Source: Spirochaetaceae bacterium (GTDB lineage: Bacteria; Spirochaetota; Spirochaetia; DSM-2461). Taken from it: a DNA stretch of 64,000 bases. A program made the translations under genes and the position numbers. The DNA is taken from assembly GCA_965224705.1 (NCBI GenBank), contig OZ245056.1:608001-672000 (forward strand), given 5' to 3'. The notes beneath the pieces are model-generated. The model made no database searches. It saw nothing but the letters and a program-made list of their open reading frames with translations, and was not told the origin of the DNA. Positions 4,129 through 20,767 of the stretch are shown piece by piece. Each line of letters begins with the position of its first letter. The first letter of the stretch is position 1.

Positions 4129-5391
4129 ATGTACCATAAAAAAATAGAGAAGCGTGTCGTTATTACAGGATTGGGAACAATTAATCCGATTGCCAACGAT
4201 GTTGAAAGCTACTGGGAAGGTCTGAAGGCCGGTCGATCGGGTATCCGTCGAATCCAGCATGTTAATCTTGACAAATATCATATACATATCGGCGGTGAGG
4301 TTGATTTCCCCGATAATCTGAGATCCTACTTCAAACAGCCTAAGATGATTAAGAGGCTGGACCGCAACATAATTTATGCGCAGGTGGCAGGCATGCAGGC
4401 TCTCCGTGATTCCGGGATAACTGCCGAAGATATGGCCTTTAGATGCGGTGTCGTAATAGGAACGGGCTCCGGGGGTATTCGTGCCCACCAGATAAACCTG
4501 GACCGTGTACATGACGGTAATCTATACGAAGTTTCACCATTCTATCTGATCAGTGCAATTCCAAGCACAGCTACAAGTTATTTTGCTAAAGAAGCAGGAC
4601 TCAAAGGACCCATTTTCTCAATAAATTCAGCCTGTGCCTCGGGAAATCATACATTCGGAGTCGCCTCCATGCTGATCAAGGCAGGTATGGCTGACATAAT
4701 CTTTGCCGGTGGTACAGAATCAGCAGTCAACCACCCGGGAATTATTGCATTTGGAAATATATCGGCTTTATCGACTCGAAATGATGAGCCTCAAAAGGCC
4801 AGTCGTCCCTTTGATGTTGACAGGGATGGCTGTGTACTGGGTGACGGTGCTGGCGTCCTCTGCCTGGAAGAACTGGAACATGCCAGATCCCGAGGTGCCA
4901 GAATCTACGGCGAACTGACAGGATATGGATTTACCAGTGATGCAAGTGATCTGGTTGCCCCCCACCCGGAAGCCGAGGGTTCAACTCGGGCGATCCACTC
5001 AGCTCTGGAAATGGCCGGGCTGCAAACTTCCGATATCGGGCTTATTAACGCTCATGGAACTTCTACGCCAATCGGCGATTCACTGGAAGCCCTGGGGATT
5101 CAAAAAGTATTTAAAGAAAGAAGCTCTGAAATTCCTGTTCACAGCACCAAATCAATGGTTGGTCATCTTCTTGGTGGTGCCAGTGCTGTAGAAGCCATTG
5201 CAGCACTCATGGTTTTCAATGAGAATACTGTCCATGCAACTGTGAACTATGATAATCCGGATCCCGATATAAACCTCAACATCGTTTCAGAAAACATGGA
5301 TGGTTCTCACATTGATCACATCCTTTCCAATGCCTTCGGATTCGGCGGAATGAACGCCTGTGTTGTTCTTTCACGCTATAAAGAGGAATGA
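4129..5391 (+). CDS. fabF: Beta-ketoacyl-ACP synthase II
   Basis: RVVITGLG, SACASG (Cys), NAHGTST, KSMVGHLLG, NAFGFGG. Confidence 0.93.
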   Translation: MYHKKIEKRVVITGLGTINPIANDVESYWEGLKAGRSGIRRIQHVNLDKYHIHIGGEVDFPDNLRSYFKQPKMIKRLDRNIIYAQVAGMQALRDSGITAEDMAFRCGVVIGTGSGGIRAHQINLDRVHDGNLYEVSPFYLISAIPSTATSYFAKEAGLKGPIFSINSACASGNHTFGVASMLIKAGMADIIFAGGTESAVNHPGIIAFGNISALSTRNDEPQKASRPFDVDRDGCVLGDGAGVLCLEELEHARSRGARIYGELTGYGFTSDASDLVAPHPEAEGSTRAIHSALEMAGLQTSDIGLINAHGTSTPIGDSLEALGIQKVFKERSSEIPVHSTKSMVGHLLGGASAVEAIAALMVFNENTVHATVNYDNPDPDINLNIVSENMDGSHIDHILSNAFGFGGMNACVVLSRYKEE

Positions 5392-5483
5392 GCATAAAGA
5401 AAAGCCCCTTACCCGGAACAATACCCCTTCGTTCAATGATACCGAAGAATTGAGTCCGGCCGGAAGCGCTGCTGCCTGCTCGG

Positions 5484-6326
5484 CTATGCCGCTGTGTATG
5501 CCCTCAGCGAATGAGATCTTGAAGGATGACGCAGACGATTCAAAGCTTTCTTCTCAATCTGTCTGATCCGTTCCTTGGTAAGTCCCAATATATCACCAAT
5601 CTCTTTCAATGAAAGAGAGCGGGTATCACCCAGCCCAAAACGGTATCTGATGACTTTTGCCTCTTTTTCAGACAGTGTTCCAAGCACATCATCAATCTCT
5701 TTAGTCAGCATTTTCCTGATGGCCTGCTCCTCAGGAGCAGCGGACAGAACATCTTCAATGAAATCACCAAGGTTGGATGTATCCTCTTTATCATAAACTG
5801 GTGTCTCAAGGGAAACCAGATCTCTGCTGATTGCCTGAAGAACCTTTACGTCTTCTTCCTTAATCCCGGTAATATTGGCGATGAAAGCATCGGAAGGTTG
5901 ATTCCCATATTCGGACAAATATGCTTTCTTGGTGTTTTTAATCTGTACAAGCTCATTGGCTCGATTCATTGGGAGCCGAATCATTCGGGATTTCTCATAA
6001 ATAGCTTTGAGAATGGCCTGGCGAATCCACCAGACAGCATACGAGATGAAGTGATATCCCTTATCAGGATCGTATCGGCTGATGGCATTCATTAATCCAA
6101 TATTTCCTTCACTGATAAGATCTTCCAGAGGTAAACCTTGATTTTGAAATTTCTTCGCTGTACTGACAACAAATCTCAAATTCGCCTCAATAAGCTTTAA
6201 TTGAGCATCTTTGCTGCCGGATGCGGCTGCACGAGCGATTATGTCCTCCTGCTCCCGTGTAAGCAGAGGAACTTCATTGATCTCCTTGAAATACAGAGAT
6301 AGATCATTATCTTTTTTCAACTGCAT
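5484..6326 (-). CDS. Short sigma70-family factor (RpoS-like; regions 1.2, 2, 3, 4)
   Basis: YFKEINEVPLL, ANLRFVVS, DLISEGNIGL, FISYAVWWIRQAI, TKERIRQIEKKAL; start placed at ATG 6326 after GGAG. Confidence 0.9.
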   Translation of the reverse strand: MQLKKDNDLSLYFKEINEVPLLTREQEDIIARAAASGSKDAQLKLIEANLRFVVSTAKKFQNQGLPLEDLISEGNIGLMNAISRYDPDKGYHFISYAVWWIRQAILKAIYEKSRMIRLPMNRANELVQIKNTKKAYLSEYGNQPSDAFIANITGIKEEDVKVLQAISRDLVSLETPVYDKEDTSNLGDFIEDVLSAAPEEQAIRKMLTKEIDDVLGTLSEKEAKVIRYRFGLGDTRSLSLKEIGDILGLTKERIRQIEKKALNRLRHPSRSHSLRAYTAA

Positions 6327-6349
6327 TATCATCTCCTGCCTGCAAACAA

Positions 6350-6364
6350 GCAAGAAACGGGCCA
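6350..6364 (-). promoter_or_regulatory. sigma54 (-24/-12) promoter
   Basis: Minus strand TGGCCCG-TTTC-TTGC with canonical spacing, just upstream of the sigma gene RBS; AT-rich tract further upstream. Confidence 0.7.
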
Positions 6365-6501
6365 AATTTGAAGCTGTTCTATATATTTTATTATTCTATA
6401 ATAACTTATATTTTTTTCATCTGAACTATTTTACGGAGTAACGTCTCTGTTGTACTTTGAGAGTAGCGGGAATCCTTTAAATTGGGCCATTTCTACCCAT
6501 T

Positions 6502-6861
6502 TCAACTACACGGCTCACTAATTGAGTCATAATAACCCATGTCATGGGTTGATGACTCGAAATTGAGACATGGTAACCCGATTCTCAAGTCGTTGACAAA
6601 GTCAAATGGTACGTATGAATTTGGATTATCAGCGACAAAACCCGGGAACACAATGGTAGTACCCCAGTATAAGGTATCCCGTCCCTGACGGCTTAAGCAT
6701 TTCCATTGACTGGAATAACACAGCTCAACCCATGCATCAGTAATCATGCCCATCACAGCATCAAATTCGCAGCGGCCAGAGAAGCGTTTCTGGGGCCGTG
6801 ATGATAAATACCGATTCACCTGGATGTGTTGAAATCTCAGAATCTCCTCTTTAACATCCAC
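6502..6861 (-). CDS. Hypothetical protein
   Basis: 119-aa ORF with GGAG upstream; no recognised motif. Confidence 0.5.
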   Translation of the reverse strand: MDVKEEILRFQHIQVNRYLSSRPQKRFSGRCEFDAVMGMITDAWVELCYSSQWKCLSRQGRDTLYWGTTIVFPGFVADNPNSYVPFDFVNDLRIGLPCLNFESSTHDMGYYDSISEPCS

Positions 6862-6938
6862 AAATGTTTGTCTCCAAGTCTTGATACAAACAAGATAGTT
6901 ATGAATATAAGAAACGGCAATACTTTTTTATGCGATTG

Positions 6939-7469
6939 TTAATCCAATACTGTTACTTCCAGAAGTGCGGCTGTGGCGACTTTCCCACTCACAAGAACCT
7001 GCCCCAGAAGAGTACCAAAATAGGCATCATATTCAACCACACGGGCAAGCAGAGTCATTGTATCGCCCGGTTTTACTTCACTTCTGAAATAGACACCTTT
7101 GATACGGGTTGCCCGGATATTGGGGGGTGTTGCATCATGGCCAATACTGGTGGCATTGTTCTCCATGAAATGAACAAGACACAGGCCTGTTTGACCGATG
7201 GCCTCCACCTGTAAAGTACCGGGATAGACTGGATAGTCTGGAAAATGTCCCTGGAAGAGTGGGAGTTCCGGCGATAGATGATACTCACCTGAGATAATCC
7301 TGTTCTCCAGATCAATTCCCGTGAGATATTCGACAAGAAGAAATGGCTCCCGGTGAGGAAGTATACATTTTATATCGGATAGACCGTAGTCAATTCTGCA
7401 TGGTAAGGCTTCAGGATTGCACAGGGGAACACGGCGATGATGCTTCAGCAGATTGTCTTCGCTATCCAC
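6939..7469 (-). CDS. 3-hydroxyacyl-ACP dehydratase, FabZ-like
   Basis: LPHREPFLLV and FQGHFPDYPVYPGTLQVEAIGQ (His/Glu dyad). Confidence 0.9.
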   Translation of the reverse strand: MDSEDNLLKHHRRVPLCNPEALPCRIDYGLSDIKCILPHREPFLLVEYLTGIDLENRIISGEYHLSPELPLFQGHFPDYPVYPGTLQVEAIGQTGLCLVHFMENNATSIGHDATPPNIRATRIKGVYFRSEVKPGDTMTLLARVVEYDAYFGTLLGQVLVSGKVATAALLEVTVLD

Positions 7470-7522
7470 AGAACACCCCTGACGAAATTCTTCTGCTTCT
7501 GATGTGTGATCCGCCCATGGTA

Positions 7523-8782
7523 TTACTCAATACCTTTTACAATCACATCTTCAATGATATTGAGCGTTTCATCCATCTGGGGTTTGGTAAGCTGAGATGA
7601 TACCGATATGCGAAAACGTCGTGCATGAGCTGGTACTGCGGGAAAATCCACCGGCTGCAGGAATAATCCCCGCTTCTGCATGGCGGCAGCATATCTCATG
7701 AGTTTTGCACCATCAGAACCAATGATGACAGGTATAACCTGAGATTCACTGTTACCTGAATCCAGGCCCAATTTATCCAGACAACCTTTCAAGTAGACCA
7801 CATTTTCCCAGAGTTTATCCCGGAGAGTTGAATCCCTGGTGGCAATTTCCAGTGCTTTCAGCAATCCGCCAGTGACAGCCGGTGATGGGGCGCATGAAAA
7901 ATTCCACGGGGATGCATACCCTTTGAGATAACGAATCAGTCCTTTGTTAGCACACACAAATCCTCCAACTCCGCCAAAGGACTTACTGAGAGTTCCAAAG
8001 GAAACTCCGATACGGTCTTCTACACCAAAATGCTCTGCCACACCACGTCCATTTTCACCGAACATAAGTGTGGAATGTGCTTCATCTATATAGGACCCGG
8101 CACCAAATTTCTCGCAAAGTTCCAGGATCTCAGGCAGCTTTGGGAGATCCCCATCCATGGAATAAACACCTTCCACAACAACAAGAGTGCGCTTATTTCC
8201 AGCTTTCTCAAGCATCTTTTCAAGGCTATCCAGATCATTATGCGCGAAGAACAGCATCCTGGCCCCAGACAGTGTACCGCCATCGATAAGGCTTTTATGG
8301 CATTTTTCATCCATTATCAGGTAGTCACCCTTGCGGATTATTCCCTGAATTGCTCCAACATTGGCCCCGAGGCCACTGGAAAACAGGAGACAATCATCTT
8401 TCTGCTTAAACTTCGCCAGCTTACGGGCTAACTCGACATGAATATCCAGGGTACCTGACAGCAGTGGAGCTCCTGAAGACCCAAGGCCATACTTATCCAG
8501 AGCATCTTTCGCAGCCTGTATTACCTCTGGATGAGTTGACAATCCCAGATAGTTGTATGAAGTCAGGTTGATTATCCGCCGTTCCCTGCCATCAAGATTA
8601 CTGCGAATCAGCGTGGAAACCCTGGGAGCTTCCAGCAATTCCTGTTCAAAGAAACTAAACCCCTGCTTAACCGCGGGATGATTCATCCATTTTTCAAAAT
8701 CCGAGGGAGGAGCCAGGATGTCTGTACTATCATTAAAGAAAAAATCAGCCAGACTGAAATTCAGAATATCGTCATTGGACAT
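7523..8782 (-). CDS. PLP-dependent alpha-oxoamine synthase, serine palmitoyltransferase-like
   Basis: SYNYLGL, EGVYSMDGD, DEAHS, GTLSKSFG (PLP Lys), RFRISVS; family is secure, substrate is inferred from context. Confidence 0.8.
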   Translation of the reverse strand: MSNDDILNFSLADFFFNDSTDILAPPSDFEKWMNHPAVKQGFSFFEQELLEAPRVSTLIRSNLDGRERRIINLTSYNYLGLSTHPEVIQAAKDALDKYGLGSSGAPLLSGTLDIHVELARKLAKFKQKDDCLLFSSGLGANVGAIQGIIRKGDYLIMDEKCHKSLIDGGTLSGARMLFFAHNDLDSLEKMLEKAGNKRTLVVVEGVYSMDGDLPKLPEILELCEKFGAGSYIDEAHSTLMFGENGRGVAEHFGVEDRIGVSFGTLSKSFGGVGGFVCANKGLIRYLKGYASPWNFSCAPSPAVTGGLLKALEIATRDSTLRDKLWENVVYLKGCLDKLGLDSGNSESQVIPVIIGSDGAKLMRYAAAMQKRGLFLQPVDFPAVPAHARRFRISVSSQLTKPQMDETLNIIEDVIVKGIE

Positions 8783-8874
8783 TTAGGATTCTCCTATAAC
8801 AAATCTTTCAGATGACCAGCCGAATAACCCCACCAACCACTGTCCGATCTTATCCTGGATGAATAATAGTATTT

Positions 8875-9132
8875 CTACGTGGACTGGTTTTTATCAAGGT
8901 ATTCCAGGAACTTATCTGCAAGGGTGTCGATATTAGTGAGCTCAGCAAGCTCAGCTCTTGGAACTTTGATGCCCAGTTCACGCATGGAGCAGGAAACCAC
9001 TTCGATCATATCAAGGCTGTTCGCCCCATAATCTTTCATTGAATTCTGTGGATCAATTTCATCAGCTTTAATATCATCAAGGTTTTCCTCAATGATTTTT
9101 TTGATGATATCGATGACTTCTGGTTTTGTCAT
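8875..9132 (-). CDS. Acyl carrier protein, AcpK-like (beta-branching donor type)
   Basis: 85 aa, acidic, YGANSLD phosphopantetheine motif (N rather than D before Ser). Confidence 0.88.
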   Translation of the reverse strand: MTKPEVIDIIKKIIEENLDDIKADEIDPQNSMKDYGANSLDMIEVVSCSMRELGIKVPRAELAELTNIDTLADKFLEYLDKNQST

Positions 9133-9971
9133 AGTTCTTTCTCCTGTAAGCCGATCCTGGTATCATCCATGGATCGTTTAGTAATATATTCCATCATCGC
9201 ATTGTCCCGGAATGGCAATCCAAGGTCAGCGTTGATTATTTGGCCATTTATTGCGGACATCAATCCGCTGCACAGTGCCAGTATAACTTTACCACATTCA
9301 GTGGGTGTTAGGATAGCATCTTCACCAATACCTTTGTTTTCCTTCAGCCACTCAAAATACTCCTCTCCAAATATAGCCGTAAATGAAGGTGTACGAACAG
9401 TTCCAAACCGTATTGTATTCACACGGCAGCCATCATCATAGAGGTGTACGGCTAAATATCGTGTAAAAAACTCCAATAATGCCTTGGAAGCCGCTACATA
9501 GTCATAGCCTCGATAATAGTTGTCCGGCCCGTTTGAAGAAATTCCAACAACAGTCTCAGGATACCTGCCAAATTTCTTTTTCGCCTGACGGACATAGTCT
9601 ATCAGAGGCCAGGAACTGTAATCAAAGGATTTATACAGGGATTTCTTCCTGTAATCCTCCAGGGTTTCCGCCTTCAGGGCGAATCCGACATTGGAGACAA
9701 AAATATCTATCCCATCATGCTCTTTCCCTATCATCTCCATCACGGTGACCGTATCTTCTTCCCGGGAGACATCGGCTTCCAGGATGAGTGGGGATGGGGC
9801 ACCTTTCGACCTGAAGAGTTTCAAGACTTCATCTTCGGGAGTAGAGCCCCAGCGATGAGTAAGAACAGAACGCACACCGGCAGCACCAAGTTCCAGTCCT
9901 GCTGCAAGACCGATACCGCTGGTTCCACCAGTTATGAGAGCCGTTTTCCCGCTTAGATCAATGGAAGTCAT
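9129..9971 (-). CDS. SDR, probable enoyl-ACP reductase (FabI/FabL type)
   Basis: TGGTSGIG; catalytic Y-x6-K (YDYVAASK) typical of enoyl reductases. Confidence 0.75.
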   Translation of the reverse strand: MTSIDLSGKTALITGGTSGIGLAAGLELGAAGVRSVLTHRWGSTPEDEVLKLFRSKGAPSPLILEADVSREEDTVTVMEMIGKEHDGIDIFVSNVGFALKAETLEDYRKKSLYKSFDYSSWPLIDYVRQAKKKFGRYPETVVGISSNGPDNYYRGYDYVAASKALLEFFTRYLAVHLYDDGCRVNTIRFGTVRTPSFTAIFGEEYFEWLKENKGIGEDAILTPTECGKVILALCSGLMSAINGQIINADLGLPFRDNAMMEYITKRSMDDTRIGLQEKEL

Positions 9972-9983
9972 TCAGCCAAACTC

Positions 9984-10736
9984 CTAATTCGCATAAAACT
10001 CATCAATGATTTTCCTGGTTTCAGAGTAACCAAAGCTGATACGATGCATCAGATCCTCCTGTTTCCTGGCTTCATTAAGCAGTTGCCTCTTTCGTGCACT
10101 CAGGGTGTATTTTAACAGTCGAATGGAAGCTGGATTTTTTTCAGCTATCTGCCGTGCGAGATCTTTAGCAACATTTATAACCCGCATTTTTGTAACAAAT
10201 CGGTTGATGTTTGTATTCATACGTTCAAGCTCAATTCCCTTGAAACGTTTCGCCGTGAACATCATTTCATTCGCCACGAAAGGACCAACCATGTCGGCCA
10301 GCAGAGTAGTGATTCCCATCCCGGGGGTAAATCCCATCGACATGAAAACGGCTCCGTAACGGCTTTCTTTCGCCGCGATAACGATGTCTGAACAGCAGGC
10401 CAGGGCTAAGCCGCCTCCCAGAGCATGACCCTCCATGGCCGCAATAATTGGGAATTCGGCATTCAACAGTCTTTCCGACAGAATAAGATCTTTCACGAGA
10501 ATTTTTCCCTCGGTAAGGGCCATCAGAGTATTTTTATCGGCACCGGCACAAAAAACATCATGAAGTCCGCAAAGAACCATAACGCGTGGAGGTTCTCTCA
10601 AAGCTTCCACTTCATCCATAGTTCGCACAAAATCAGCAATGAATGTTTCAGAGAAAACATTTTTTCCCTTCTCATCATTCAATTTAAACCACCCAACACC
10701 ATTAGGATCCACTGTGAAGGTAATGACACCACTCAT
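9984..10736 (-). CDS. Crotonase ECH2 (PksI-like methylglutaconyl-ACP decarboxylase)
   Basis: AMEGHALGGG, FMSMGFTPGMG and C-terminal EDLMH resemble PksI signatures. Confidence 0.85.
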   Translation of the reverse strand: MSGVITFTVDPNGVGWFKLNDEKGKNVFSETFIADFVRTMDEVEALREPPRVMVLCGLHDVFCAGADKNTLMALTEGKILVKDLILSERLLNAEFPIIAAMEGHALGGGLALACCSDIVIAAKESRYGAVFMSMGFTPGMGITTLLADMVGPFVANEMMFTAKRFKGIELERMNTNINRFVTKMRVINVAKDLARQIAEKNPASIRLLKYTLSARKRQLLNEARKQEDLMHRISFGYSETRKIIDEFYAN

Positions 10737-11599
10737 TGATCATCTCCTTGAAATGGTTCACAAAGGGGAACAGTGGGGCGATATGATTCAAACCAACCGG
10801 GCAGTTCTCCACTGGAAAAACCTTTTATTGCTTCCAATGTATCAGGACTGACCGCTATATTCACAAGTTCTTCCACTGCAAGATTCCTCTGTTCCTCAAG
10901 GGTTAAATATCTCAATTTCTGCATAAAAGCTTTTTGCCTGCCTGTAGCCGCCGGTGAAAGACGCATAAGCCGTCGGCCAAGTTTATTCACAGCCTTTTTC
11001 AGATTATAGTCAGAATGCACCTCATCAACCAAGCCCCAGGATAGAGCAGTTTGAGCATCAATGCATGCAGCCGTTTGAACCAGATAAGCCGCCCTCTTAA
11101 CCGGCATCCGCATGGACAGAATATAGGGCATCACATTGGCTGGAATGAGACCAAGATAGAGTTCACTCAGCTCAAAACTTGCAGAATCAGAGGCTATAAC
11201 AACATCACAGGCCGCTGCCAGTCCCACTCCGCCAGCTTTCACAGCACCCCGAATAAGAGCTGTTGTAGTTTTGGAACATTTGTGTATTTCCTCAAGAAGA
11301 CAGGAATAGGCTGTAACACTGTCACGAAACCTGACTGCTGAATCACTGATGTTCTCAGAATTAAAGGCATCAAGATCCATGCCGAGACTGAAAACCGGTC
11401 CGTTGGACCGGAGTAGAATAAACCGGACAGAATCATCGGTAGAAAAATCCCGTACAGCACTCCGGATACCTTCAATCAAACTGGCATTGAGACGATTACC
11501 TCCAGTGGAATCTGTCATCGTTATTATGCCCGCACCAGAATCGATTATAGTCTTTACTGGCAAAAGTTCAGCTCCAGCCGTAGTGACGGACGTATCCAT
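10733..11599 (-). CDS. Crotonase ECH1 (PksH-like HMG-ACP dehydratase)
   Basis: FSLGMD, AGGVGLAAACD, FELSELYLGLIPANVMP resemble PksH. Confidence 0.85.
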   Translation of the reverse strand: MDTSVTTAGAELLPVKTIIDSGAGIITMTDSTGGNRLNASLIEGIRSAVRDFSTDDSVRFILLRSNGPVFSLGMDLDAFNSENISDSAVRFRDSVTAYSCLLEEIHKCSKTTTALIRGAVKAGGVGLAAACDVVIASDSASFELSELYLGLIPANVMPYILSMRMPVKRAAYLVQTAACIDAQTALSWGLVDEVHSDYNLKKAVNKLGRRLMRLSPAATGRQKAFMQKLRYLTLEEQRNLAVEELVNIAVSPDTLEAIKGFSSGELPGWFESYRPTVPLCEPFQGDDQ

Positions 11600-12797
11600 C
11601 CACTTTATTCAGTGTCAGCAGTCCTTTCCCCTGATAGTTACTGTCCCATAATCCAGCAGGGAAATCGCGATCCGGTATATAATTTTCCTTCTCAATACTG
11701 TCCTTGCGTTTGACATCAACCTCTTCGTATTCCTGAACACTGGCTTCACGGCGGCGATCCAATTGTCCATCAATATCCATGGTCCTGACTTGCTCAATAC
11801 CGCCGTCAAGAACCCGGCCACTCCAGAATTCCCCTATGGCACCCGATCCATACGCATAGTAACCAATACGATCCCCGGCCCGTACAGGGGCTTCTCCAGA
11901 AAGCAGGCTGGCCGTCCCTACAAAGTTGCTGGAGCCGTATGTGGAACCAAGCCGCCGAGAATACTTCAACGCAGGAAATACTCTTTTCTGAAAGTCTTCC
12001 TGCACCTCAGCTTTCTTACGCAGACTGTTAATATTACAGAGTGTTCGGTGAGCCTGGAATGCCATACCAGGAAAGGGGGTATGATAACATAACCATTGAT
12101 GATCGGCATCAAAGTCAACTTCGGTCCCTGTTCGTGAGACATAATCATCCCAGGCTCCTTCCAGGGCATCCAGGTATGAATACAAACTCACCTCATTATT
12201 CCCTACTTCACCGGTGGCACTTGGACGCCAGGTATCATAGATATCAGTAGACCATGTCCCTTTGCGGTATGGTTCAAACTCAACAATTTTCGGCACTTCG
12301 CTGATCAGAAGAGCAGCCGCAACGCCGCCAAGAACAAATTCTTCCTTTTTTTTCAGATGCTCCCGGGAGAAGTCAGAGGCTATGATCAAAGCTTTACGGC
12401 CTTGATTCAGTCCTGATGCAACCCAGTTGACTCCCGTATCCAGAGCAGCCAGACCGCTGTAGCAGGCATGTTTGACTTCATAATTCCTTATATTCTGATT
12501 TAAACCCAGCGCTCCGATAATATTCGTGGAAATTGGTTTCCCAAAGTCGACTGAACCTTCCGTTCCCACAATGAGCATGCCAATACTATCCGGGTCAACA
12601 TCATTCATCAGCGTCTTTGCCGCATTGGCACCCATGGTAACCGTATCCTCCCATACAGGATTCAAAGATCGGGTGTCGATAAGATAATCACCAATAACGG
12701 TTTTAGGATCCTTGTTCCGGGCTAGAGCTATTTGCCGCTGTTCAACGAACATGCTGCATCCATAGATATTCAATTTCTCGATTCCCACTCTATTCAT
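11568..12797 (-). CDS. HMG-CoA-synthase-like HMG-ACP synthase (PksG type)
   Basis: GTEGSVDFGKP (Glu), EVKHACYSG (Cys), YHTPFPGM (His); adjacent to ECH1/ECH2. Confidence 0.92.
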   Translation of the reverse strand: MNRVGIEKLNIYGCSMFVEQRQIALARNKDPKTVIGDYLIDTRSLNPVWEDTVTMGANAAKTLMNDVDPDSIGMLIVGTEGSVDFGKPISTNIIGALGLNQNIRNYEVKHACYSGLAALDTGVNWVASGLNQGRKALIIASDFSREHLKKKEEFVLGGVAAALLISEVPKIVEFEPYRKGTWSTDIYDTWRPSATGEVGNNEVSLYSYLDALEGAWDDYVSRTGTEVDFDADHQWLCYHTPFPGMAFQAHRTLCNINSLRKKAEVQEDFQKRVFPALKYSRRLGSTYGSSNFVGTASLLSGEAPVRAGDRIGYYAYGSGAIGEFWSGRVLDGGIEQVRTMDIDGQLDRRREASVQEYEEVDVKRKDSIEKENYIPDRDFPAGLWDSNYQGKGLLTLNKVDGYVRHYGWS

Positions 12798-12838
12798 ATA
12801 ATTTCCTCATAATTTCATTCCTGATCCTATCGGGATTC

Positions 12839-13579
12839 CTATGGAATATAGGTTAATCCTCCGGCAACACATAGGTTCTCTCCATTGATAAAACCAGCTT
12901 TTTCTGTTGTAAGATAATACACCGCATCCGCTATTTCCTCCGCTTCCCCTATCCTTTTGATGGGACAGTACTCCATCCATATCTTTTTCAGTTTCTGTGC
13001 CAGATGCTCCTCTGTCATATCCGTTTCCACATATCCAACCGTAACGACATTGGAAGTGATTCCCTTGGCACCATATTCCCGGGCTACTGTTTTCGACAGA
13101 GTCACCAGGCCGCCCTTGCTGACAGAGTAACTTACCTGACCGCTTGAACCATCCTGGGCAAGCGATGAGATGTTAATTATGCGGCCATATCTTGCTCCAA
13201 CCATGGACATGAGGAACTGTCGGATCATGTAAAAAGGGCCCGTTAAGTTGGTGCGGATTACATCATTCCATTCATCATTACTCATGAAGGCAACGGCATT
13301 ATTCCGATTAATCGCTGCATTATTGACCAGAACTCCAATTTCTCCGAAGTCGTTCAGAGCCTCTTCCACGACAGATTCAACCTGTTCCGGGTATCCCTGG
13401 TCCAATTGATAGGATTGGATTTTTGCATTCGAGTTGATTTTTTTAGCTGATTCGATGGTTTTGGCCGCAGCTTCGATATTGCTGGCATAGCTGAAGGCAC
13501 ATCCATAGCCTTCCTCAATGAACTTGAGAACAATTGCCTGGCCGATACCTCTGGAACCGCCAGTAACAAAGCAATTCAT
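12839..13579 (-). CDS. 3-oxoacyl-ACP reductase, FabG-like
   Basis: TGGSRGIG, NNAA, ISS, YSVSK. Confidence 0.88.
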   Translation of the reverse strand: MNCFVTGGSRGIGQAIVLKFIEEGYGCAFSYASNIEAAAKTIESAKKINSNAKIQSYQLDQGYPEQVESVVEEALNDFGEIGVLVNNAAINRNNAVAFMSNDEWNDVIRTNLTGPFYMIRQFLMSMVGARYGRIINISSLAQDGSSGQVSYSVSKGGLVTLSKTVAREYGAKGITSNVVTVGYVETDMTEEHLAQKLKKIWMEYCPIKRIGEAEEIADAVYYLTTEKAGFINGENLCVAGGLTYIP

Positions 13580-14862
13580 GATCCCTCCTCATATCGTTTA
13601 ATAAGTGAGCAACAGTTGATACCTCCGAAACCAAAGGAATTTTTGAGCATCATACTGATGTGATAGTCCTCTGCTTCTGTTATAACATTGAGCTTGATTT
13701 CCGGATCCAGCCTGTCAATATTGATTGTGGGATGAAGACGTCCATGCTTCATTTGCAGTAATCCGCCAATGGTTTCCACCAGTGGACTGCCCCAGCAGGT
13801 ATGTCCCAGCATGGATTTCGGGGCATTGATTCTAAGATTCCCGGCATGTTCTCCAAATGTCTCCTGAATGGCCAGAACTTCCTGTAAATCACCGGACGGG
13901 GTTCCCGTTGCATGGCAATTGACATAGTCAACCTCCCAGGGTTCGACTCCTGTCATGGATAGCAGATCTTTCATAACTCTGGCCTGGTTTTCTGCACCGG
14001 GCATGGGAAGGTGATTGGCATTGGATCCCGCTTTCACCCCCAGTAACTCCCCATAGATAGGAGCATTCCTTTCCAGTGCGGTATCAAGGCTTTCAAGAAT
14101 GAGCGTAGCTGAACCATGGGAGTAGAGGAAACCACATCGATCTGAATCAAATGGCCTGGACGCTTCGGTGGGCCTGTTTTGATAGTCCGGACGAATGACC
14201 ACAGCATTGATGATTGCTGAAGCCTGGATATCAGCGGGAGAAACATCAAAAGGAGGACCGCATACAACGGACCGGACTGATTCACCGCTGAGGATGTCTC
14301 GCAGTCCTTCCCTGAGTGCTAAATTACCGCTTGCACAGGCTCCTCCAATGGTAAACGAGGGCCCCTTTGCGCCCAATACTTCCGCAACAATTCCGGGGAT
14401 ATTGGGATCTATCGCCTCCACTCCCGCCAGTGCATCAATCCACTCAGGCTCTTCCTGGAACTGTTTTGTTACCTCAAACATGTAATTGGAATTGAAATTA
14501 TGTCCGGCAACCATCACCCCGGTATCGACGGGATTTCCTTCATCAATCTTCAAGCCTGCGTCTTTCCAGGCAGCCAGAGTTGTAAGAATTGCCATACGTG
14601 CGGAAAAAGTTGTATATCGAAAAAGCTTCTTCACTGTTTTGAAGCGATCCCTGCCTAAAAAATCCTGAAATTGCTCCAATGCAGCTTTTGTATCGTAATC
14701 GCCAAGATCCCCTCCGATCTTACACTCAACATTGCTCAGGTCAATTGATGTCCATTGTTTCATTCCGGACTTTCCAGCAATGAGAGCTTCATAGTAGCCG
14801 TCCAGTGTATCGGCAAGAGGGTTGATCGTACCCATACCGGTAATGACTATACGTTTATTCAT
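13576..14862 (-). CDS. Stand-alone ketosynthase (PksF/FabF-like) with intact Cys-His-His
   Basis: FTIGGACASG, NCHATGT, KSMLGHT, NSFGFGG. Confidence 0.88.
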   Translation of the reverse strand: MNKRIVITGMGTINPLADTLDGYYEALIAGKSGMKQWTSIDLSNVECKIGGDLGDYDTKAALEQFQDFLGRDRFKTVKKLFRYTTFSARMAILTTLAAWKDAGLKIDEGNPVDTGVMVAGHNFNSNYMFEVTKQFQEEPEWIDALAGVEAIDPNIPGIVAEVLGAKGPSFTIGGACASGNLALREGLRDILSGESVRSVVCGPPFDVSPADIQASAIINAVVIRPDYQNRPTEASRPFDSDRCGFLYSHGSATLILESLDTALERNAPIYGELLGVKAGSNANHLPMPGAENQARVMKDLLSMTGVEPWEVDYVNCHATGTPSGDLQEVLAIQETFGEHAGNLRINAPKSMLGHTCWGSPLVETIGGLLQMKHGRLHPTINIDRLDPEIKLNVITEAEDYHISMMLKNSFGFGGINCCSLIKRYEEGS

Positions 14863-15782
14863 AGTAAACCTTCGATAGCATCCAGTTTTCCCGCAGGTCT
14901 TGCCCGAAGTTTACTTCTCATGTTTTTCCACAACCCGGTAAGAACTGTTCCAGGTCCCACTTCGAGAACCTGATCCGGGTTAAGATCCATCAATGCTTTT
15001 TGACTGTCAACCCATCGGACACAATGGTCAAGCTGGTCCAGACATGTCTGTCTCAATTCATCACCTCTGCTGGCAGTTGCCGCTGTAGTATTGACATATA
15101 TGGGGATCTTCGGATCTGAAAAGACGATACCATCAAGGAATTCAGAAAACTCCGGTTTCGCATCTTCAAGCAATGGGGAATGAAAAGGACCGGAGACCAT
15201 GAGTTTCACCTGTTTCATCGCACCAGCCTCTTCCAATTTTTCCTCAGCCTTACTCAATCCAGCAGCCGTACCGGAAAGGACGGATTGATTCGGCGAACTG
15301 TGGAGTGCGATATAAACGTCATCAATTCCATTAATGGCCATGGCAATTTTTTCTCTATCCAGACCCAGTACGGCACTCATTCCCACAGGACCATCCGGTG
15401 TATCTTTGGTTCGACTGATTCTTTCAAGCAGTTTGCCTCTTTTATCAACAACTCGCAGAAGATCCCCCCGGGTCAACACTCCAGCCTGGTAAAGAGCTGT
15501 GTATTCTCCAAGACTGAATCCCGCACAGGCAGAAGCTGTAATACCACGAGCTTCCAGAGCCATGGATGCTGCCATACTCACAAGAATTATGGCAACCTGA
15601 GCGACATCGGTCGCTTTGAGTTCCTCTGCACTGCTATCAAACAGGATCTTTGCCCAATCACGACCGTTGATGTCCGATGCTTCATCGAATAATTGACGCA
15701 CATTCAGATCGGCATTATATAAATCTTGCCCCATACCAGGATACTGAGCCCCCTGGCCTGGAAAGAGAAATATTGTTTTCAT
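14859..15782 (-). CDS. Malonyl-CoA:ACP transacylase, FabD-like
   Basis: FLFPGQGAQ, AGFSLGEY, VSGPFHS, EVGPG; start placed at second Met. Confidence 0.92.
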   Translation of the reverse strand: MKTIFLFPGQGAQYPGMGQDLYNADLNVRQLFDEASDINGRDWAKILFDSSAEELKATDVAQVAIILVSMAASMALEARGITASACAGFSLGEYTALYQAGVLTRGDLLRVVDKRGKLLERISRTKDTPDGPVGMSAVLGLDREKIAMAINGIDDVYIALHSSPNQSVLSGTAAGLSKAEEKLEEAGAMKQVKLMVSGPFHSPLLEDAKPEFSEFLDGIVFSDPKIPIYVNTTAATASRGDELRQTCLDQLDHCVRWVDSQKALMDLNPDQVLEVGPGTVLTGLWKNMRSKLRARPAGKLDAIEGLL

Positions 15783-15853
15783 TGCTTCTCCATCTGATTC
15801 TTGAGTATGCAAAGTACCCTGGATCAGAAAAATATTTCAAGTACATTAAATCA

Positions 15854-16981
15854 TCAAAGAGTCTTATCATACACTCGATGGATTTTATAATGCACACAAC
15901 CCCACTTTTCCAATAGATTTCTCAAAGGATAGTTAGTTTCAAGAATCCAGCTGAACTCACCAATGTCCATATTGGTACTCAGTCCATCATCATTGAGTTT
16001 AGTCATCATCAGTCCATCAATTCCCTTGCCCTGATATTCCGGTAACACGCCAAAAGCAGCAACACGAAGTATTTTGGCCTTTTTCTTCGCTGCCAGCAGT
16101 TTGAAGATTCCGAAAGGGAAAAGCTTCCCCTCAAGCTTCTGTAAAGCGAAATTTATATCTGGTATGGGGAAACAAAACCCAACAGCTTCGCCATCTATCT
16201 CAGCGATATAAGTAAGCTTTGGGTTCATCATTATCTTTATGCCTTTTGCCATTTTCTTGAATTCAGGGTCATACCAGGGAGTAAATCCCCAGTTGTTATG
16301 CCAACCTCTTTCCCAGATTTCCTTTACAACTGCAACTTCGGCATCCCAGTTTTTAATGCTGGCCGTCCTGATAGTAATACCATTGCGTTTCGCTGCCAGT
16401 TCAGAAATCCGCCGGATTCTGTCACTGACAGGCGCCTCTCTTACATTCCTCCGATAGGAGTATAGATCCTGTGCCCTGGTATAACCGGCATTTTCAATCT
16501 GCTGACCATAATACGGCGCCGAGTAGGGCATATCGATAACTGGCAATTCTTCAAAATTATTAATCTGGTTCCCAACCTGGAAATTGGTGGAACCATTGAC
16601 AGGCCCCATAACCTTCTCCATGCCCCTGGATCTCAACCATTCTTCTGCTGTTCTGAATAACGCTTCGCTGACATCCGGACGGTCAAGGCATTCATAGTAA
16701 CCAAAGAAACCGGTCTGAGTCTTTTGATATTCAACATAATTCTGATCAATAAATGCGGCGATGCGGCCAAGAACCTTCCCATTTTCCCTGGCAAGCCAGA
16801 ATTGCCCTTCGGTATGGTCATACATGGGATTCTTCTTATTCATAACCTGGCGTAGATCCATATTGAGGGGAGGGACCCAGTTACTGTATCGGAAACAATG
16901 GCTCCAATACACATCGTAGGGGAGACGAATAAATTCCTTATTATCTTTTCGGTTTACGACTTCACCGATCTCAACATCCAT
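15854..16981 (-). CDS. GNAT-fold N-acyltransferase, YghO/bacterial ceramide synthase-like
   Basis: FIRLPY..NWVPPL, GRIAAF, GFFGYYEC, PYSAPYY, NWGFTP, PDIN, GVLPEYQGKG, SWILETN. Confidence 0.78.
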   Translation of the reverse strand: MDVEIGEVVNRKDNKEFIRLPYDVYWSHCFRYSNWVPPLNMDLRQVMNKKNPMYDHTEGQFWLARENGKVLGRIAAFIDQNYVEYQKTQTGFFGYYECLDRPDVSEALFRTAEEWLRSRGMEKVMGPVNGSTNFQVGNQINNFEELPVIDMPYSAPYYGQQIENAGYTRAQDLYSYRRNVREAPVSDRIRRISELAAKRNGITIRTASIKNWDAEVAVVKEIWERGWHNNWGFTPWYDPEFKKMAKGIKIMMNPKLTYIAEIDGEAVGFCFPIPDINFALQKLEGKLFPFGIFKLLAAKKKAKILRVAAFGVLPEYQGKGIDGLMMTKLNDDGLSTNMDIGEFSWILETNYPLRNLLEKWGCVHYKIHRVYDKTL

Positions 16982-17084
16982 GACTCTTCCCAGAATACCA
17001 GCAATAATCGGCTATTGCAAGACGAAATCAGGCTTGAATTGTTTCCTGACCTGGTTTTCATGCCGTGTTTCATTTTTCTGATAA

Positions 17085-19388
17085 TCACCGATTACGAATC
17101 CTCTCATAGAAAGTGATGGCTGCAGGTATGAAAATCACTGTTCCTGTCATTGTTGAAAAAAGTGTTCCAGCAATAAGAAATCCAAAGAATACAACTGGCT
17201 TGAAGCTGGCAAAACATAGAACCAGAAGTCCGGCGACCAGAGAAAATGTGGTTAGCACAATGGGACGGCCCGTAATGTGCAAACTTGATGAGAGAGCGGA
17301 ATCATACGGTTGTAGAAGTCTTTGCTTCCTATACTGCAAAATGAAATGAACGGCATCATCCAGTCCGACGCCCACCGTTACATTCGTTACCAGAATAGTT
17401 GTCAGATCCAGGGGAATTCTGGTCAAATAGAGCGTAATGAAATAAAAGAAGATACCACTGAGCAAGGGTACCAGGGCAATCAAGCTGAATACAAACGATC
17501 GGAAAAAGATCCAGGTCACAATCATGCCCAGAGTGATGGAAATCAAAGTAGATCTCAGTTGATCACGTTTAATCGTCCGGGATGATTCCATAATTAGAAG
17601 TGTATTGCCCCACACATTAATTTCAACTGAATCATCAAAATAAACGGCTGATTCATCGTTGACAAAGTCCTGAAACTTCCGAACATCGTTTTCATTGATC
17701 ATGCTGTATGTATCTGTTTCAGCCAATTTGAGATAAACAGTTATCTGGGATGCATCATCGTTAATAATGGAGGAATCCTGACCAAAGATTATTTTATCTC
17801 GCGGGATCATACTGAAATAACGGTAGAGTAAAAGTATTAATCCCCTGGATTCCGGAACAGTCTCCTCCCCATTCACAGCTTCATTCATTGCTTTGAGAAT
17901 TCCAATAAATGACCGCTTGCTGGTTACAGAGGGATGTTCGCTGAGAACTGTTTCAAATCTGTCTGTTAAACTCAGAATTTTCGGATTGAGGAAAAAATTC
18001 TTCTCACCATTTGCCGCCGTCAGTGTTATATTGAATGTCTGGGAGCCGCCGCTGTGTTCGTTGATGAATTGACTCCCGATAATAAGGGGATCATCTGAGG
18101 GAAAATAAGAAAAGTAATCCGACTGGTGAAGGATGTGGGGGTAACCTGACAGGAAAAACACAAACAGCAGGATGAATGAAGCAAGCAGGATGTATCGATA
18201 TCGAGATGCCCACTGGCCGAACCGGGTGACAATGCTGATTATTGGACCATCTTTAATACGTTTGCGATGGATTGCCGGGGGTGTTTTAAGGATGTAAAAA
18301 ACAGATGGCAGAAAAGAAAGCGCCAGTATGGCACAAAAGAAAATTCCAAGGCTTATAGATAACCCAAACTCCCGGAGGGGACGAATAGTTGTTGTCAACA
18401 AACTCAAAAAACTGATCATTGTAGTGAGTGCGGCTATTATAACAGTGCGGATAACGTGTTCAACAGCATCAGTCAGCCATTGCATTTTTTCAGTTTCTCC
18501 AGATTTTTCAATCCGGTAATACTCATTGAGGATATGAATCGTATAAGAACTGCCAATCGTAAGAACCAGTGCCGGGACAATAACAGTGAGAACGGTGATC
18601 TTGAAACCAATCATGGACATAACACCCAGAGTCCAGATTGTTCCAACGACTGTGACCATAACAGGTAGAATGACAGCTCTCAGTGAGCGGAAACTAAGCC
18701 AGAAGATAGTAAGCATGGTAATCAGAGCTAGAATCATCAATCTGGAAAAATCTCTCAACAAGTAAAACGCCACTCGTTCTTGAAACGGGATCTCACCTGT
18801 ATGGTACACCCTGACCACCTCTTTGAGAGGTTTGATAGCCGCATCGAAAGAAATCATGAATGAGGCAGAATCCACCACCGTTCTACTTATAAATGCAGCA
18901 GTTAAAATTCGGCCATTGTCGGAAACAACCAGATTTCTCGACAGTGAGTTGCTCCTGACACGTTTTTCAAAAATCTCCAATTCTTCAAGATTCAATGGTG
19001 CCCTTCCAGTCGGAGAAACTGTTGCGGGAATGATCCGGCGGCCTTCCGCATCAAATGAAATGAAATTGAATGGTGACAGGGCAACTATGATTTCTGGTAT
19101 ATCCAGTATGGCATCAATTGTGTTTTGGAATTCCTGGAGGACCTTGAGATTATACAAATCATTGCCATAAATACTGATAAAGACAAAATTAGTGATTTCT
19201 TTCTCAATTCCCAGTTCCGTTCGTATTTTGTCTATCCGATCATTTTGTCTGGGTGTCAGATTGTTCACATCGGTATCGATACCTATATCTGCTGCTTTCC
19301 AGCCCATAAATACAGTGACCAATATCGTCAGGACTATAATGAGTTTCGAGTTTCTGAGAACGAATCGGATAAATTTCCTGATACTCAA
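17085..19388 (-). CDS. MMPL/RND family transporter
   Basis: Duplicated architecture of 1 TM, periplasmic domain and TM bundle; IGSSYTIH and GVGLDDAVH motifs. Confidence 0.9.
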   Translation of the reverse strand: MSIRKFIRFVLRNSKLIIVLTILVTVFMGWKAADIGIDTDVNNLTPRQNDRIDKIRTELGIEKEITNFVFISIYGNDLYNLKVLQEFQNTIDAILDIPEIIVALSPFNFISFDAEGRRIIPATVSPTGRAPLNLEELEIFEKRVRSNSLSRNLVVSDNGRILTAAFISRTVVDSASFMISFDAAIKPLKEVVRVYHTGEIPFQERVAFYLLRDFSRLMILALITMLTIFWLSFRSLRAVILPVMVTVVGTIWTLGVMSMIGFKITVLTVIVPALVLTIGSSYTIHILNEYYRIEKSGETEKMQWLTDAVEHVIRTVIIAALTTMISFLSLLTTTIRPLREFGLSISLGIFFCAILALSFLPSVFYILKTPPAIHRKRIKDGPIISIVTRFGQWASRYRYILLASFILLFVFFLSGYPHILHQSDYFSYFPSDDPLIIGSQFINEHSGGSQTFNITLTAANGEKNFFLNPKILSLTDRFETVLSEHPSVTSKRSFIGILKAMNEAVNGEETVPESRGLILLLYRYFSMIPRDKIIFGQDSSIINDDASQITVYLKLAETDTYSMINENDVRKFQDFVNDESAVYFDDSVEINVWGNTLLIMESSRTIKRDQLRSTLISITLGMIVTWIFFRSFVFSLIALVPLLSGIFFYFITLYLTRIPLDLTTILVTNVTVGVGLDDAVHFILQYRKQRLLQPYDSALSSSLHITGRPIVLTTFSLVAGLLVLCFASFKPVVFFGFLIAGTLFSTMTGTVIFIPAAITFYERIRNR

Positions 19389-19401
19389 AATTTATCTCAT
19401 T

Positions 19402-20142
19402 CTATTGATAACTCACGGAGTACTCCAGTGGTTCCGTAAGCATCAATACTGGCAGTAAGGGAATTCTGTATTTCACTGTATTCTTGTTGACTACATGGCC
19501 GCCTTTCTGGTCAATGATCTGCCCTTCTACCCGGATTGTCAGATCCAGCGAAGAGGATTGGATTCCTGCACGACTCACCTCGCCCAGAGCGAATTCCATC
19601 ATGTCGAGATATTCCTCTTCTGTCAGTCCTTCTGTGCTCGCTGGTCCAAACGTCTCGACAAGTGCGTTATTGAAGGATGGGTTTTCATCAAGCAGGGCTG
19701 TGATGGTTTTGCGGTTGAGCCTCACCGTTAATTTAGAAATACGCCCATCATTCTTCATCTGGACTATCTGACTCCCGGCGGAACCCGCTTCAATACTCTG
19801 AAGCAGTATGCTCGGATCCAGGAAAGTGAACTGTCCTGTTATCCTGTTCTGTGCCGGAGCTTCCAGGCTGACAAGGGTGATTCCCTCACGCTGCCGGAAA
19901 TCATTTTCAATAGCCTCCAGGTCAAAGAATGACAACTGATTTTCTGGTACACTGTCTCCGGGTTCCAGAAGCATCATGACCTGGGCAATCACCTCAGTCA
20001 GATAATCAGCAAGCTGAATATCGAAGCTTACCCTTCCATTGCCTGACTTCTCAATGTAAACATCCTGTTTCACAGCACAGGAAGCCGCCATAATGATGCT
20101 GAGCATCCCAATCAATACCGGGTTTACCATTATTCTCTTCAA
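19402..20142 (-). CDS. Hypothetical lipoprotein
   Basis: Signal peptide ending MAAS-C; 13 bp upstream of the RND gene. Confidence 0.7.
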   Translation of the reverse strand: MKRIMVNPVLIGMLSIIMAASCAVKQDVYIEKSGNGRVSFDIQLADYLTEVIAQVMMLLEPGDSVPENQLSFFDLEAIENDFRQREGITLVSLEAPAQNRITGQFTFLDPSILLQSIEAGSAGSQIVQMKNDGRISKLTVRLNRKTITALLDENPSFNNALVETFGPASTEGLTEEEYLDMMEFALGEVSRAGIQSSSLDLTIRVEGQIIDQKGGHVVNKNTVKYRIPLLPVLMLTEPLEYSVSYQ

Positions 20143-20332
20143 AGCAACACCTCAAACAGGGTTTATAGAAAGCTCAACTCCTGTCTGCCCAGGCATCCAG
20201 TTTCCACGAGTACCACGTCGACATAGCAAAAAAACAAGCCGGAACCGCAATGGGTGCTTTCAGAGTTCCCCATCAAACTATAGTATAATGAAGAATAAAC
20301 AAAATGTCACGCCCTCTCTTGATGCTGCCCCC

Positions 20333-20555
20333 AGTGTCCGAAAGCTTGTAGAGATGAAACGGCGACAATTTCTACAAGGATAATATATTATGAATAAAGA
20401 AATTACAATGGTTTTCGATTGGCATGATCTTCTAACACTTAAAATGATTTTTTATCAAATCTTACCCGTAAACAGTGTAGGAACAACTATATCAAACAAA
20501 AACTCCTCCTTACCCAGGTACAGCGCAAACAGACATCTACAAGCTTCCTGACACT
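20333..20555. mobile_element. MITE family A (223 bp)
   Basis: Ends AGTGTCCGAAAGCTTGT / ACAAGCTTCCTGACACT; interior aligns in reverse with 24659-25171. Confidence 0.8.
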
Positions 20556-20767
20556 ACAATCTGCTTGCAGAAACCTGAAATCCAGAACGAAATGCGGCTG
20601 CGGGAAAAGTCTCTGCATGATAACAGAAAAGATGAGAAAAGGCTTCTGCCAATGGCACACTTCAGTTTTCTAAAAACTGTTATGGACAAGGCTTTTGAAA
20701 CTGATGTATAATTAGCTATATAGTGAAGGATTATGATACATTGAACAAGGAAGCTATGTAATATATA

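Follow-up and report, generated by a model that had tools for sequence, protein, structure and literature searches.

A β-branching cassette joined to type II fatty acid enzymes and an α-oxoamine synthase in a Spirochaetaceae genome: a predicted route to branched long-chain bases

What do the enzymes of a polyketide β-branching cassette make in a genome that has no modular polyketide synthase (PKS)? This question is raised by a gene cluster in assembly GCA_965224705.1 of a Spirochaetaceae bacterium, a genome that consists of one 3.0-Mb contig and is 95.2% complete. The window considered here is the whole analysed stretch of 64,000 nucleotides, positions 608,001 to 672,000 of contig OZ245056.1. 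Seven minus-strand genes at 8875–14862 of the window encode an acyl carrier protein (ACP), an enoyl-ACP reductase (ER), two crotonase-fold enzymes of the enoyl-CoA hydratase type (ECH2 and ECH1), a hydroxymethylglutaryl (HMG) synthase (HMGS), a 3-ketoacyl-ACP reductase (KR) and a ketosynthase (KS). An initial annotation had named these genes and regarded them as sufficient on paper to lead from HMG-ACP via methylglutaconyl-ACP and methylcrotonyl-ACP to a saturated branched acyl-ACP. All seven are present and the catalytic residues that were checked are kept, and the enzyme kinds described below bear out that sufficiency on paper. The operon continues into a pyridoxal phosphate (PLP)-dependent α-oxoamine synthase (AOS). 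In our estimate, by a little more than an even chance, it builds a methyl-branched acyl chain on a CurB-like ACP and releases the chain by joining it to an amino acid (probably serine) to give a branched long-chain base.

Cassette enzymes and the predicted branching route

The HMGS (11568–12797; PF08540 and PF01154) is, by its sequence, of the ACP-dependent PksG/CurD kind. Its nearest solved structures are those of PksG (226.5 bits) and CurD (225.5 bits), which align over residues 1–408, whereas HMG-CoA synthases align with it only to about residue 360. Glu80, Cys112 and His239, which we take to be the catalytic triad of an HMG synthase, are invariant in 79 of 79 orthologues. ECH2 (9984–10736) exceeds the cut-off of model NF005496 (234.4 against 215 bits) and likewise has its nearest solved relatives in branching systems, namely CurF ECH2 (125.1 bits) and PksI (124.2 bits). 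Of the two residues that align with those of CurF, Lys68 is conserved in 69 and His231 in 72 of 73 orthologues, and the enzyme is assigned on these grounds to the CurF/PksI decarboxylase kind. ECH1 (10733–11599; PF00378; NF005498 149.8 bits, below the cut-off of 250) is the putative dehydratase that acts on the HMG adduct. Among solved structures it has mixed relatives: the nearest is 3i47, PksH ranks tenth at 72.7 bits, and matches to a γ-carboxygeranoyl-CoA hydratase model (102.5 bits) and to structure 4zu2 (78.8 bits) are also found. ECH1 is the least conserved core gene, with 35–64% identity over related loci except for the closest relative, L071 (93%).

The ketosynthase separates this cassette from the classical one. 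In the accessible text of PMC10006238, the KS of a branching cassette is a condensation-inactive enzyme (KS0), whereas the condensing triad of the present KS (13576–14862; PF00109 and PF02801) is intact, Cys176, His317 and His354 being invariant in 71 of 71 orthologues. Among NCBIfam models, NF005490 for stand-alone KSs of polyketide systems fits best (314.3 bits, under its cut-off of 445), and the protein is 34% identical to each of the two FabF copies of the genome. Among 1.84 billion representatives searched, 20 stand-alone KS relatives were obtained, and all of them were compared. The active-site residue is Cys in the 15 closer ones (34–59% identity), Ser in four (33–35%) and Phe in one. 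As the Cys-His-His triad is kept and the closer stand-alone relatives also carry Cys, the enzyme appears to be of cassette lineage yet able to condense; judged from these residues, it should condense and could form acetoacetyl-ACP itself.

The ACP (8875–9132; PF00550) belongs to the cassette donor-ACP lineage. CurB is its nearest solved relative (42.3 bits, E 7e-10), AcpP-type ACPs reaching at most 28.3 bits, and Ser39 is present in 63 of 63 orthologues, with Val or Ile six residues further on (Ser+6). This Ser+6 position is presumably the one that carries the acceptor flag. That flag is a Trp or Phe in the acceptor ACPs of branching cassettes, as far as the accessible part of PMC10006238 describes them. 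Neither residue occurs at Ser+6 in any of the six ACPs of the genome, AcpP included. A modular PKS is likewise absent, all six KS-domain matches genome-wide lying in frames of 398–444 aa, and the genome thus holds neither a flagged acceptor nor the modular partner of a PKS cassette.

The enzymes could act as follows. A FabD-like acyltransferase (AT) would place malonate on the ACP, and the cassette KS would decarboxylate malonyl-ACP to acetyl-ACP and condense it to acetoacetyl-ACP. HMGS would then add acetyl-ACP to the β-keto intermediate, after which dehydration by ECH1, decarboxylation by ECH2 and reduction by ER would give a saturated β-methyl unit, which would be isovaleryl-ACP if acetoacetyl-ACP is the acceptor. 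Elongation by a second ketosynthase (FabF2), KR, a FabZ-like dehydratase and ER would follow, and AOS would condense the chain with an amino acid to a 3-keto amino base; in this genome, N-acylation of the base by a GNAT acyltransferase and export by an MMPL protein would complete the pathway. For the route from a β-ketoacyl-ACP through an HMG-type adduct, dehydration, decarboxylation and reduction, the set is complete on paper, and this part of the prediction is well supported. Acetoacetyl-ACP is preferred as the acceptor because it is the first β-keto species made, no KS III is found in the core, and the two ketosynthases divide into a starter of cassette lineage and an elongator of the FabF family. 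An iso-ended base formed through isovaleryl-ACP is nevertheless given somewhat less than an even chance.

Private type II enzymes, predicted chain release and conservation

Around the cassette lies a type II system of its own, in which a separate condensing KS, a KR, a hot-dog dehydratase, an ER and an ACP are found with their catalytic residues. The FabG-like KR (12839–13579; TIGR01830 224 bits, below the cut-off of 297.75) has Ser138 in 73 of 74 orthologues and Tyr151 and Lys155 in all 74. The ER (9129–9971; PF13561) is a FabI/FabL-like short-chain dehydrogenase/reductase (SDR) with FabL and FabI as best NCBIfam models and FabI enzymes as nearest solved structures (69 bits). Its Tyr156-x6-Lys163 pair, a spacing that we take as the mark of FabI-type reductases, is kept in 64 of 64 orthologues. 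The FabZ-like dehydratase (6939–7469, minus strand; PF07977; NF000582 86 bits, below the cut-off of 113) has an N-terminal extension and His75 and Glu89 in 55 of 55 orthologues; this gene, which the initial annotation invoked for plain elongation cycles, lies outside the seven-gene segment. FabF2 (4129–5391, plus strand), located beyond a sigma-70 gene, keeps Cys169, His309 and His346 in 47 of 47 orthologues. It is the only member of the private set to match a curated model above its cut-off (NF005589, 462.7 against 387 bits). Elongation in the private system is likely the task of FabF2, whose place within the FabF subfamily fits the division into a starter and an elongating KS. The KR, dehydratase, ER and cassette KS score below the FabG, FabZ, FabI and FabF cut-offs and a housekeeping set is present elsewhere, implying that they are relatives of the housekeeping enzymes and not those enzymes themselves.

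The housekeeping type II fatty acid synthase (FAS II) lies near 2.23 Mb, where AccA/D/C/BCCP stand beside FabH-FabG-FabF-FabZ-FabV. The housekeeping acpP (49137–49382, minus strand) is in the window, away from the FAS II locus and directly upstream of rnc for RNase III (48367–49134, minus strand), and a full mevalonate operon with its own MvaS is found near 1.63 Mb. As FAS II, AcpP and mevalonate enzymes are thus provided elsewhere, the cassette operon would be a dedicated private pathway. The exception to this separation is the AT (14859–15812, minus strand; TIGR00128 241.3 bits, below the cut-off of 260.9), the sole FabD match genome-wide. In two complete relatives, G332 and G380, the clusters carry GNAT-AT and the cluster AT (C1:453412–454293 and C1:2770717–2771607) is also the only FabD, divergent at about 240 bits against the same cut-off, while three carriers without a cluster AT have a canonical FabD elsewhere (335–359 bits). 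Because the operon holds the only FabD in these three genomes, it probably has a link with primary lipid synthesis and is expressed constitutively.

Chain release is tentatively assigned to the AOS (7523–8782, minus strand; PF00155 166.4 bits), which directly follows the ACP gene. The nearest solved structures are those of serine palmitoyltransferase (SPT; 3a2b/8guh, 263 bits), and structures of the BioF/Kbl type reach 241.7 bits. Lys267, His236, Asp233 and Arg391 are present in 56 of 56 orthologues, so that the fold and the PLP-binding lysine expected of Spt are both found. It is also the most conserved core protein (62–84% identity, 96% in L071). About 60 extra residues precede the start of the SPT alignment (query residue 63, chain residue 40), and within this extension Ser10, Ala12, Asp13, Phe14, Pro26, Asp28 and Trp32 are invariant in 25 of 25 sequences; it could be a docking element for the ACP or the membrane. 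A predicted complex of the AOS dimer with the ACP scored 0.45, the best of three controls scoring 0.00, with a run agreement of at least 82% of contacts and a partner pLDDT of at least 81. Among solved complexes, 116 of 157 reached the mark for such scores, as did 2 of 215 mismatched pairs; just 18 of the 157, but both of these mismatches, reached it with a score of 0.60 or less. The model gives weak support to an interaction of AOS with the ACP. One related locus, L120, from a metagenome-assembled genome (MAG) labelled Chlamydiae, carries ACP-AOS-GNAT followed directly by a desaturase gene (16278–17246, plus strand) with matches to PF08557, the sphingolipid Δ4-desaturase family (54.4 bits), and to PF00487. 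By its sequence, this gene links the locus directly, through gene context, to ceramide chemistry.

The cassette lies in a run of minus-strand genes at 6939–20142. Four-base overlaps link AT/KS, KS/KR, ECH1/ECH2 and ER/ACP, the HMGS and ECH1 frames as called overlap by 32 bases, and other neighbours in the run are mostly 12–92 bases apart; such tight packing is the anatomy of an operon. Upstream of KS and AT lie the 375-aa GNAT acyltransferase (15854–16981; PF00583 39.3 bits), a candidate N-acylase of the amino-lipid base, and a 767-aa MMPL/HAE3-type RND exporter (17085–19388; PF03176 96.4 bits), likely for lipid export, which matches TIGR00921 (HAE3) at 205 bits, below its cut-off, and HpnN models more weakly. 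The run opens with a 246-aa lipoprotein-like protein (19402–20142) that has a signal-peptide-like N-terminus and no Pfam or NCBIfam match. In scans of 5300–21000, promoter-like sites numbered 38 (28.8 ± 5.5 in shuffled sequence) and terminator-like sites 20 (13.2 ± 3.2), both near chance; these counts are too close to the shuffles for the scan to define the transcript limits. Four metatranscriptome libraries, which come from a single study and carry the label mollusc metagenome, contain contigs that match the operon, almost all of them at 99% identity or more. One of the runs covers 26 of 30 bins; uncovered stretches, such as 17224–18876, are uninformative. These contigs are a weak hint that the operon is transcribed in nature, DNA carry-over being uncontrolled.

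The arrangement recurs widely. Relatives were scanned with one genome per species, and the best 80 of 116 encoding stretches are the 80 related loci referred to here, with the presence of each gene counted among loci whose contig has room for it. On this basis KS is present in 68 of 69 loci, KR in 74 of 77, ECH1 in 74 of 74, ECH2 in 67 of 67, ER in 63 of 64, ACP in 62 of 63, AOS in 57 of 59 and FabZ in 53 of 57. ACP and AOS adjoin throughout. The nine-gene order KS-KR-HMGS-ECH1-ECH2-ER-ACP-AOS-FabZ is exact in 47 of the 53 loci whose contig can hold all nine genes. Two of the six deviating loci have the nine genes plus an extra weak KR-like match, two have no FabZ match, one has KS/KR/AT inverted nearby and one has no KS/KR nearby. 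This arrangement is far beyond chance. Since the cassette is tied to a private ACP and an AOS in all loci with room but two, the chain would be destined for an amino lipid and not for bulk fatty acids. Among the accessory genes near the core of the 80 loci, FabF2 occurs in 48 (on either side), AT in 26, GNAT in 23, an Sfp-type phosphopantetheinyl transferase (PPTase) after FabZ in 13 and an NAD-dependent epimerase, which in this genome is located elsewhere, in 8. The related loci are mostly from Spirochaetota MAGs, the others being labelled Aminicenantes, FCPU426, Firestonebacteria, Brevinematales and Chlamydiae, with one oligochaete symbiont. Of 400 other Spirochaetota genomes sampled, 21 carry an orthologous HMGS (55–60% identity) and nine more hold a relative at 35–38%.

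A second kind of stand-alone cassette was observed in other spirochaete families, at L064–L066 (genomes G119, G067 and G018; for example L065:5026–15768), with an HMGS 35–38% identical to the present one. Its genes encode an MBL-fold protein, a KS that keeps Cys, an S-adenosylmethionine (SAM) methyltransferase, KR, HMGS, ECH1, ECH2, a PEBP, an ACP, a PlsC-type acyltransferase, a PPTase and a DUF3187 protein. As no dehydratase, ER, second KS or AOS is found in these cassettes, they probably hand a branched acyl group on to an acceptor of the glycerolipid type.

Alternative readings

Several observations weigh against the proposed branched long-chain base. The AOS matches TIGR01825 (349.5 bits), bioF (329.3 bits) and the SPT (CFB) model (325.6 bits) most closely, with Kbl similar and all under their cut-offs, and it falls well short of the three curated SPT models (NF047600, 325.6 against 640; NF047599, 276 against 500; NF047603, 246.4 against 670). 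As it lies below every curated cut-off, with BioF/Kbl nearly as close as SPT, its amino acid is not fixed by its sequence. The neighbours of the GNAT protein in an atlas search are GNAT clusters of about 370 aa without names; the AOS-GNAT-desaturase order of L120 is suggestive of a member of the bCerS family, a candidacy given by context only, and this desaturase link is seen in 1 of 80 loci. The MMPL exporter and the lipoprotein accompany the cluster in the nearest relatives only (2 of 80 and 1 of 80 loci, the latter being L071). The cluster ACP is donor-like in its Val or Ile at Ser+6, and we know of no precedent for one ACP type that serves as both donor and acceptor. Sequence likewise fixes neither the acceptor of HMGS nor the position and number of branches, and the iso end is a preference. 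Finally, only partial matches of 24–25 bits to the E1 of a branched-chain keto acid dehydrogenase were obtained in the genome search. A VorB-family branched-chain 2-oxoacid oxidoreductase is present, however (513.6 bits, above the cut-off of 399). It may supply ordinary branched primers, and an acetate-derived route is therefore not forced; the idea that the route is needed for want of a source of branched primers was rejected for this reason.

The same background bears on the primer that the initial annotation had proposed. An ACP-bound route to isovaleryl is chemically apt, but its role as a general primer for iso-fatty acids is weakened by the separate FAS II and AcpP, by VorB and by the private KR, dehydratase, second KS and AOS. 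If HMGS instead acts once on a longer β-ketoacyl-ACP, a single internal methyl would result, near the head or in mid-chain (at carbon 5 of the base if introduced in the last cycle). HMGS acts on a grown chain in all the cassettes described in the accessible text of PMC10006238, the private KR, dehydratase, ER and FabF2 could build the chain first, and the ER gene directly follows ECH2. HMGS would, however, have to spare acetoacetyl-ACP, the first β-keto species formed, and the condensing triad of KS fits a starter role as well; an internal branch is judged unlikely. It is more improbable still that the ACP is a donor only, as CurB and AcpK are, the cassette branching the β-ketoacyl-AcpP of the housekeeping system and AOS taking acyl-AcpP or acyl-CoA. 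The closeness to CurB, the missing acceptor flag and the use of the genome's only FabD by both systems would agree with such sharing. On the other hand, a conserved private KR, dehydratase, ER and second KS would then duplicate FabG, FabZ, FabV and FabF, AcpP lacks the Trp or Phe as well, and both the adjoining ACP and AOS genes and the weakly supportive complex prediction (0.45) speak for a private chain.

A chain of another length or shape has also been weighed. The AOS family includes CqsA and LqsA, and BioF/Kbl-type synthases, which use short acyl groups, score near SPT, so that a short or medium chain could end as a diffusible amino-ketone or α-hydroxyketone signal of the CAI-1/LAI-1 kind or as a pyrazine precursor. 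The autoinducer-synthase model is, however, the lowest of the close AOS models (189.7 against 349.5 bits), and CqsA structures reach 116 bits against 263 for SPT. An elongating KS of the FabF family, the GNAT protein and the lipid-type MMPL/HAE3 exporter of this genome, the dihydroceramide-type desaturase of L120 and the position of the operon as holder of the only FabD in three genomes also argue for a lipid, making a small molecule improbable. The second product of the initial annotation was a phytanyl-like chain made without isoprenoid enzymes, in which branching cycles alternate with plain ones, each pair adding a C5-like unit, so that a multi-methyl chain from malonate-derived acetate would be joined to the amino acid. 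The enzyme set permits this on paper, and two distinct condensing KSs could serve the two kinds of cycle. No feature speaks for it, however: in a freely diffusing type II system a β-ketoacyl-ACP would meet either KR or HMGS, and strict alternation would need an extra selector. A single HMGS, ECH1 and ECH2 are found in all 80 loci, the literature search gave no precedent, and the iterative product, left unsupported, is considered highly improbable. The phrase about isoprenoid enzymes also needs a rider, as it can refer to the chain and not to the genome, which has the full mevalonate pathway. The branched long-chain base released by AOS is retained as the favoured product.

Two further observations were made in this genome. 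LpxC was not found in this genome (a single contig, 95.2% complete); it is present in 210 of 401 sampled Spirochaetota genomes and in none from families f2–f12 of the same class. The operon lipid as a general substitute for lipid A or lipopolysaccharide was considered and rejected, as 18 of the 21 sampled spirochaete carriers of the orthologous HMGS have LpxC, the other three being G332, G380 and the 78%-complete G079. An aryl-polyene-type cluster at about 2,050,000–2,066,000 (L021) encodes ApeP- and ApeI-like dehydratases, a KS/CLF-like pair, a KR, two ACPs, a glycosyltransferase 2, an LpxL-like acyltransferase, a DUF3261 protein, a PlsC-like acyltransferase and an aromatic amino-acid lyase split in two frames of 367 and 108 aa.

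Comparison with known systems

β-Branching cassettes are known as accessories of giant PKSs, and the present operon would wire one into a small, self-contained machine of the FAS type with a sphingolipid-type end. This machine is shared by many bacteria from several phyla, most of them uncultured. Confirmation of the product would establish an origin of methyl branches in bacterial lipids that depends on neither leucine nor SAM, together with branched long-chain bases, or ceramides, of a new class that could be used as environmental biomarkers. It would also establish a cassette KS that has kept its condensing activity, with a bearing on the origin of branching cassettes. Were the iterative reading true, the operon would be a non-terpenoid bacterial route to phytanyl-like sphingoid lipids. 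The literature search, which left most subscription journals and supplements outside its reach, found no paper describing a stand-alone cassette that is linked with type II enzymes and an AOS, and the accessible part of a paper on Black Sea sphingolipids (PMC11334938) mentions neither Spirochaetota nor HMGS.

The alternative isovaleryl-CoA route of myxobacteria consists of MvaS, LiuC, AibA/B and AibC. Both that route and the predicted one convert an HMG thioester by the same series of chemical steps into a saturated isovaleryl thioester, independently of leucine, and ECH1 resembles hydratases of the methylglutaconyl type. Here the intermediates would be bound to ACP instead of CoA, a crotonase (ECH2) would take the place of the CoA-transferase-like AibA/B, the reductase is an SDR instead of a medium-chain dehydrogenase/reductase, and the output would be coupled to AOS and not to bulk iso-fatty acids.

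Bacterial sphingolipid synthesis of the Caulobacter type employs Spt, often with a dedicated ACP, together with bCerS and CerR, according to the accessible text of PMC11087976. The operon shares with the system as described there an SPT-like PLP enzyme beside a dedicated ACP and an acyltransferase nearby, and a Δ4-desaturase occurs in one related locus. It differs in that its AOS fails the SPT models, its ACP groups with the donor ACPs of cassettes, and its chain would be made by the operon itself and is predicted to be branched. CerR is absent from the operon; the NAD-dependent epimerase found near the core in some related loci has not been compared with it. In Pseudomonas fluorescens MYb115, sphinganines are made by SgaAB, a monomodular type I PKS with an aminotransferase, as outlined in the accessible part of bioRxiv 10.1101/2024.02.06.579051. 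That system resembles the present one in reaching sphingoid bases without recourse to a canonical Spt that draws on the general acyl pool, whereas SgaAB, so far as described there, has no branching cassette and in the operon HMGS, ECH1 and ECH2 accompany type II enzymes that are separate proteins.

The closest likeness is to the branching cassettes of trans-AT and cyanobacterial PKSs, such as PksG/PksI for bacillaene and CurB/CurD/CurF for curacin. A cassette is defined in the accessible text of PMC10006238 by a donor ACP, KS0, HMGS, ECH1 and ECH2, and all five protein types are found here, four of them with solved relatives in those systems (PksG/CurD, CurF ECH2/PksI and CurB, with PksH weaker). 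The predicted chemistry is also the same, that is, the addition of acetyl-ACP to a β-keto thioester followed by dehydration and decarboxylation. The present cassette departs from these systems in having no modular PKS or flagged acceptor ACP, a KS that should condense, a private type II set and an AOS at its end. The chemistry and every enzyme family are thus known; what is new is the combination of a condensing cassette KS, a single donor-like ACP, a type II setting and release by an AOS.

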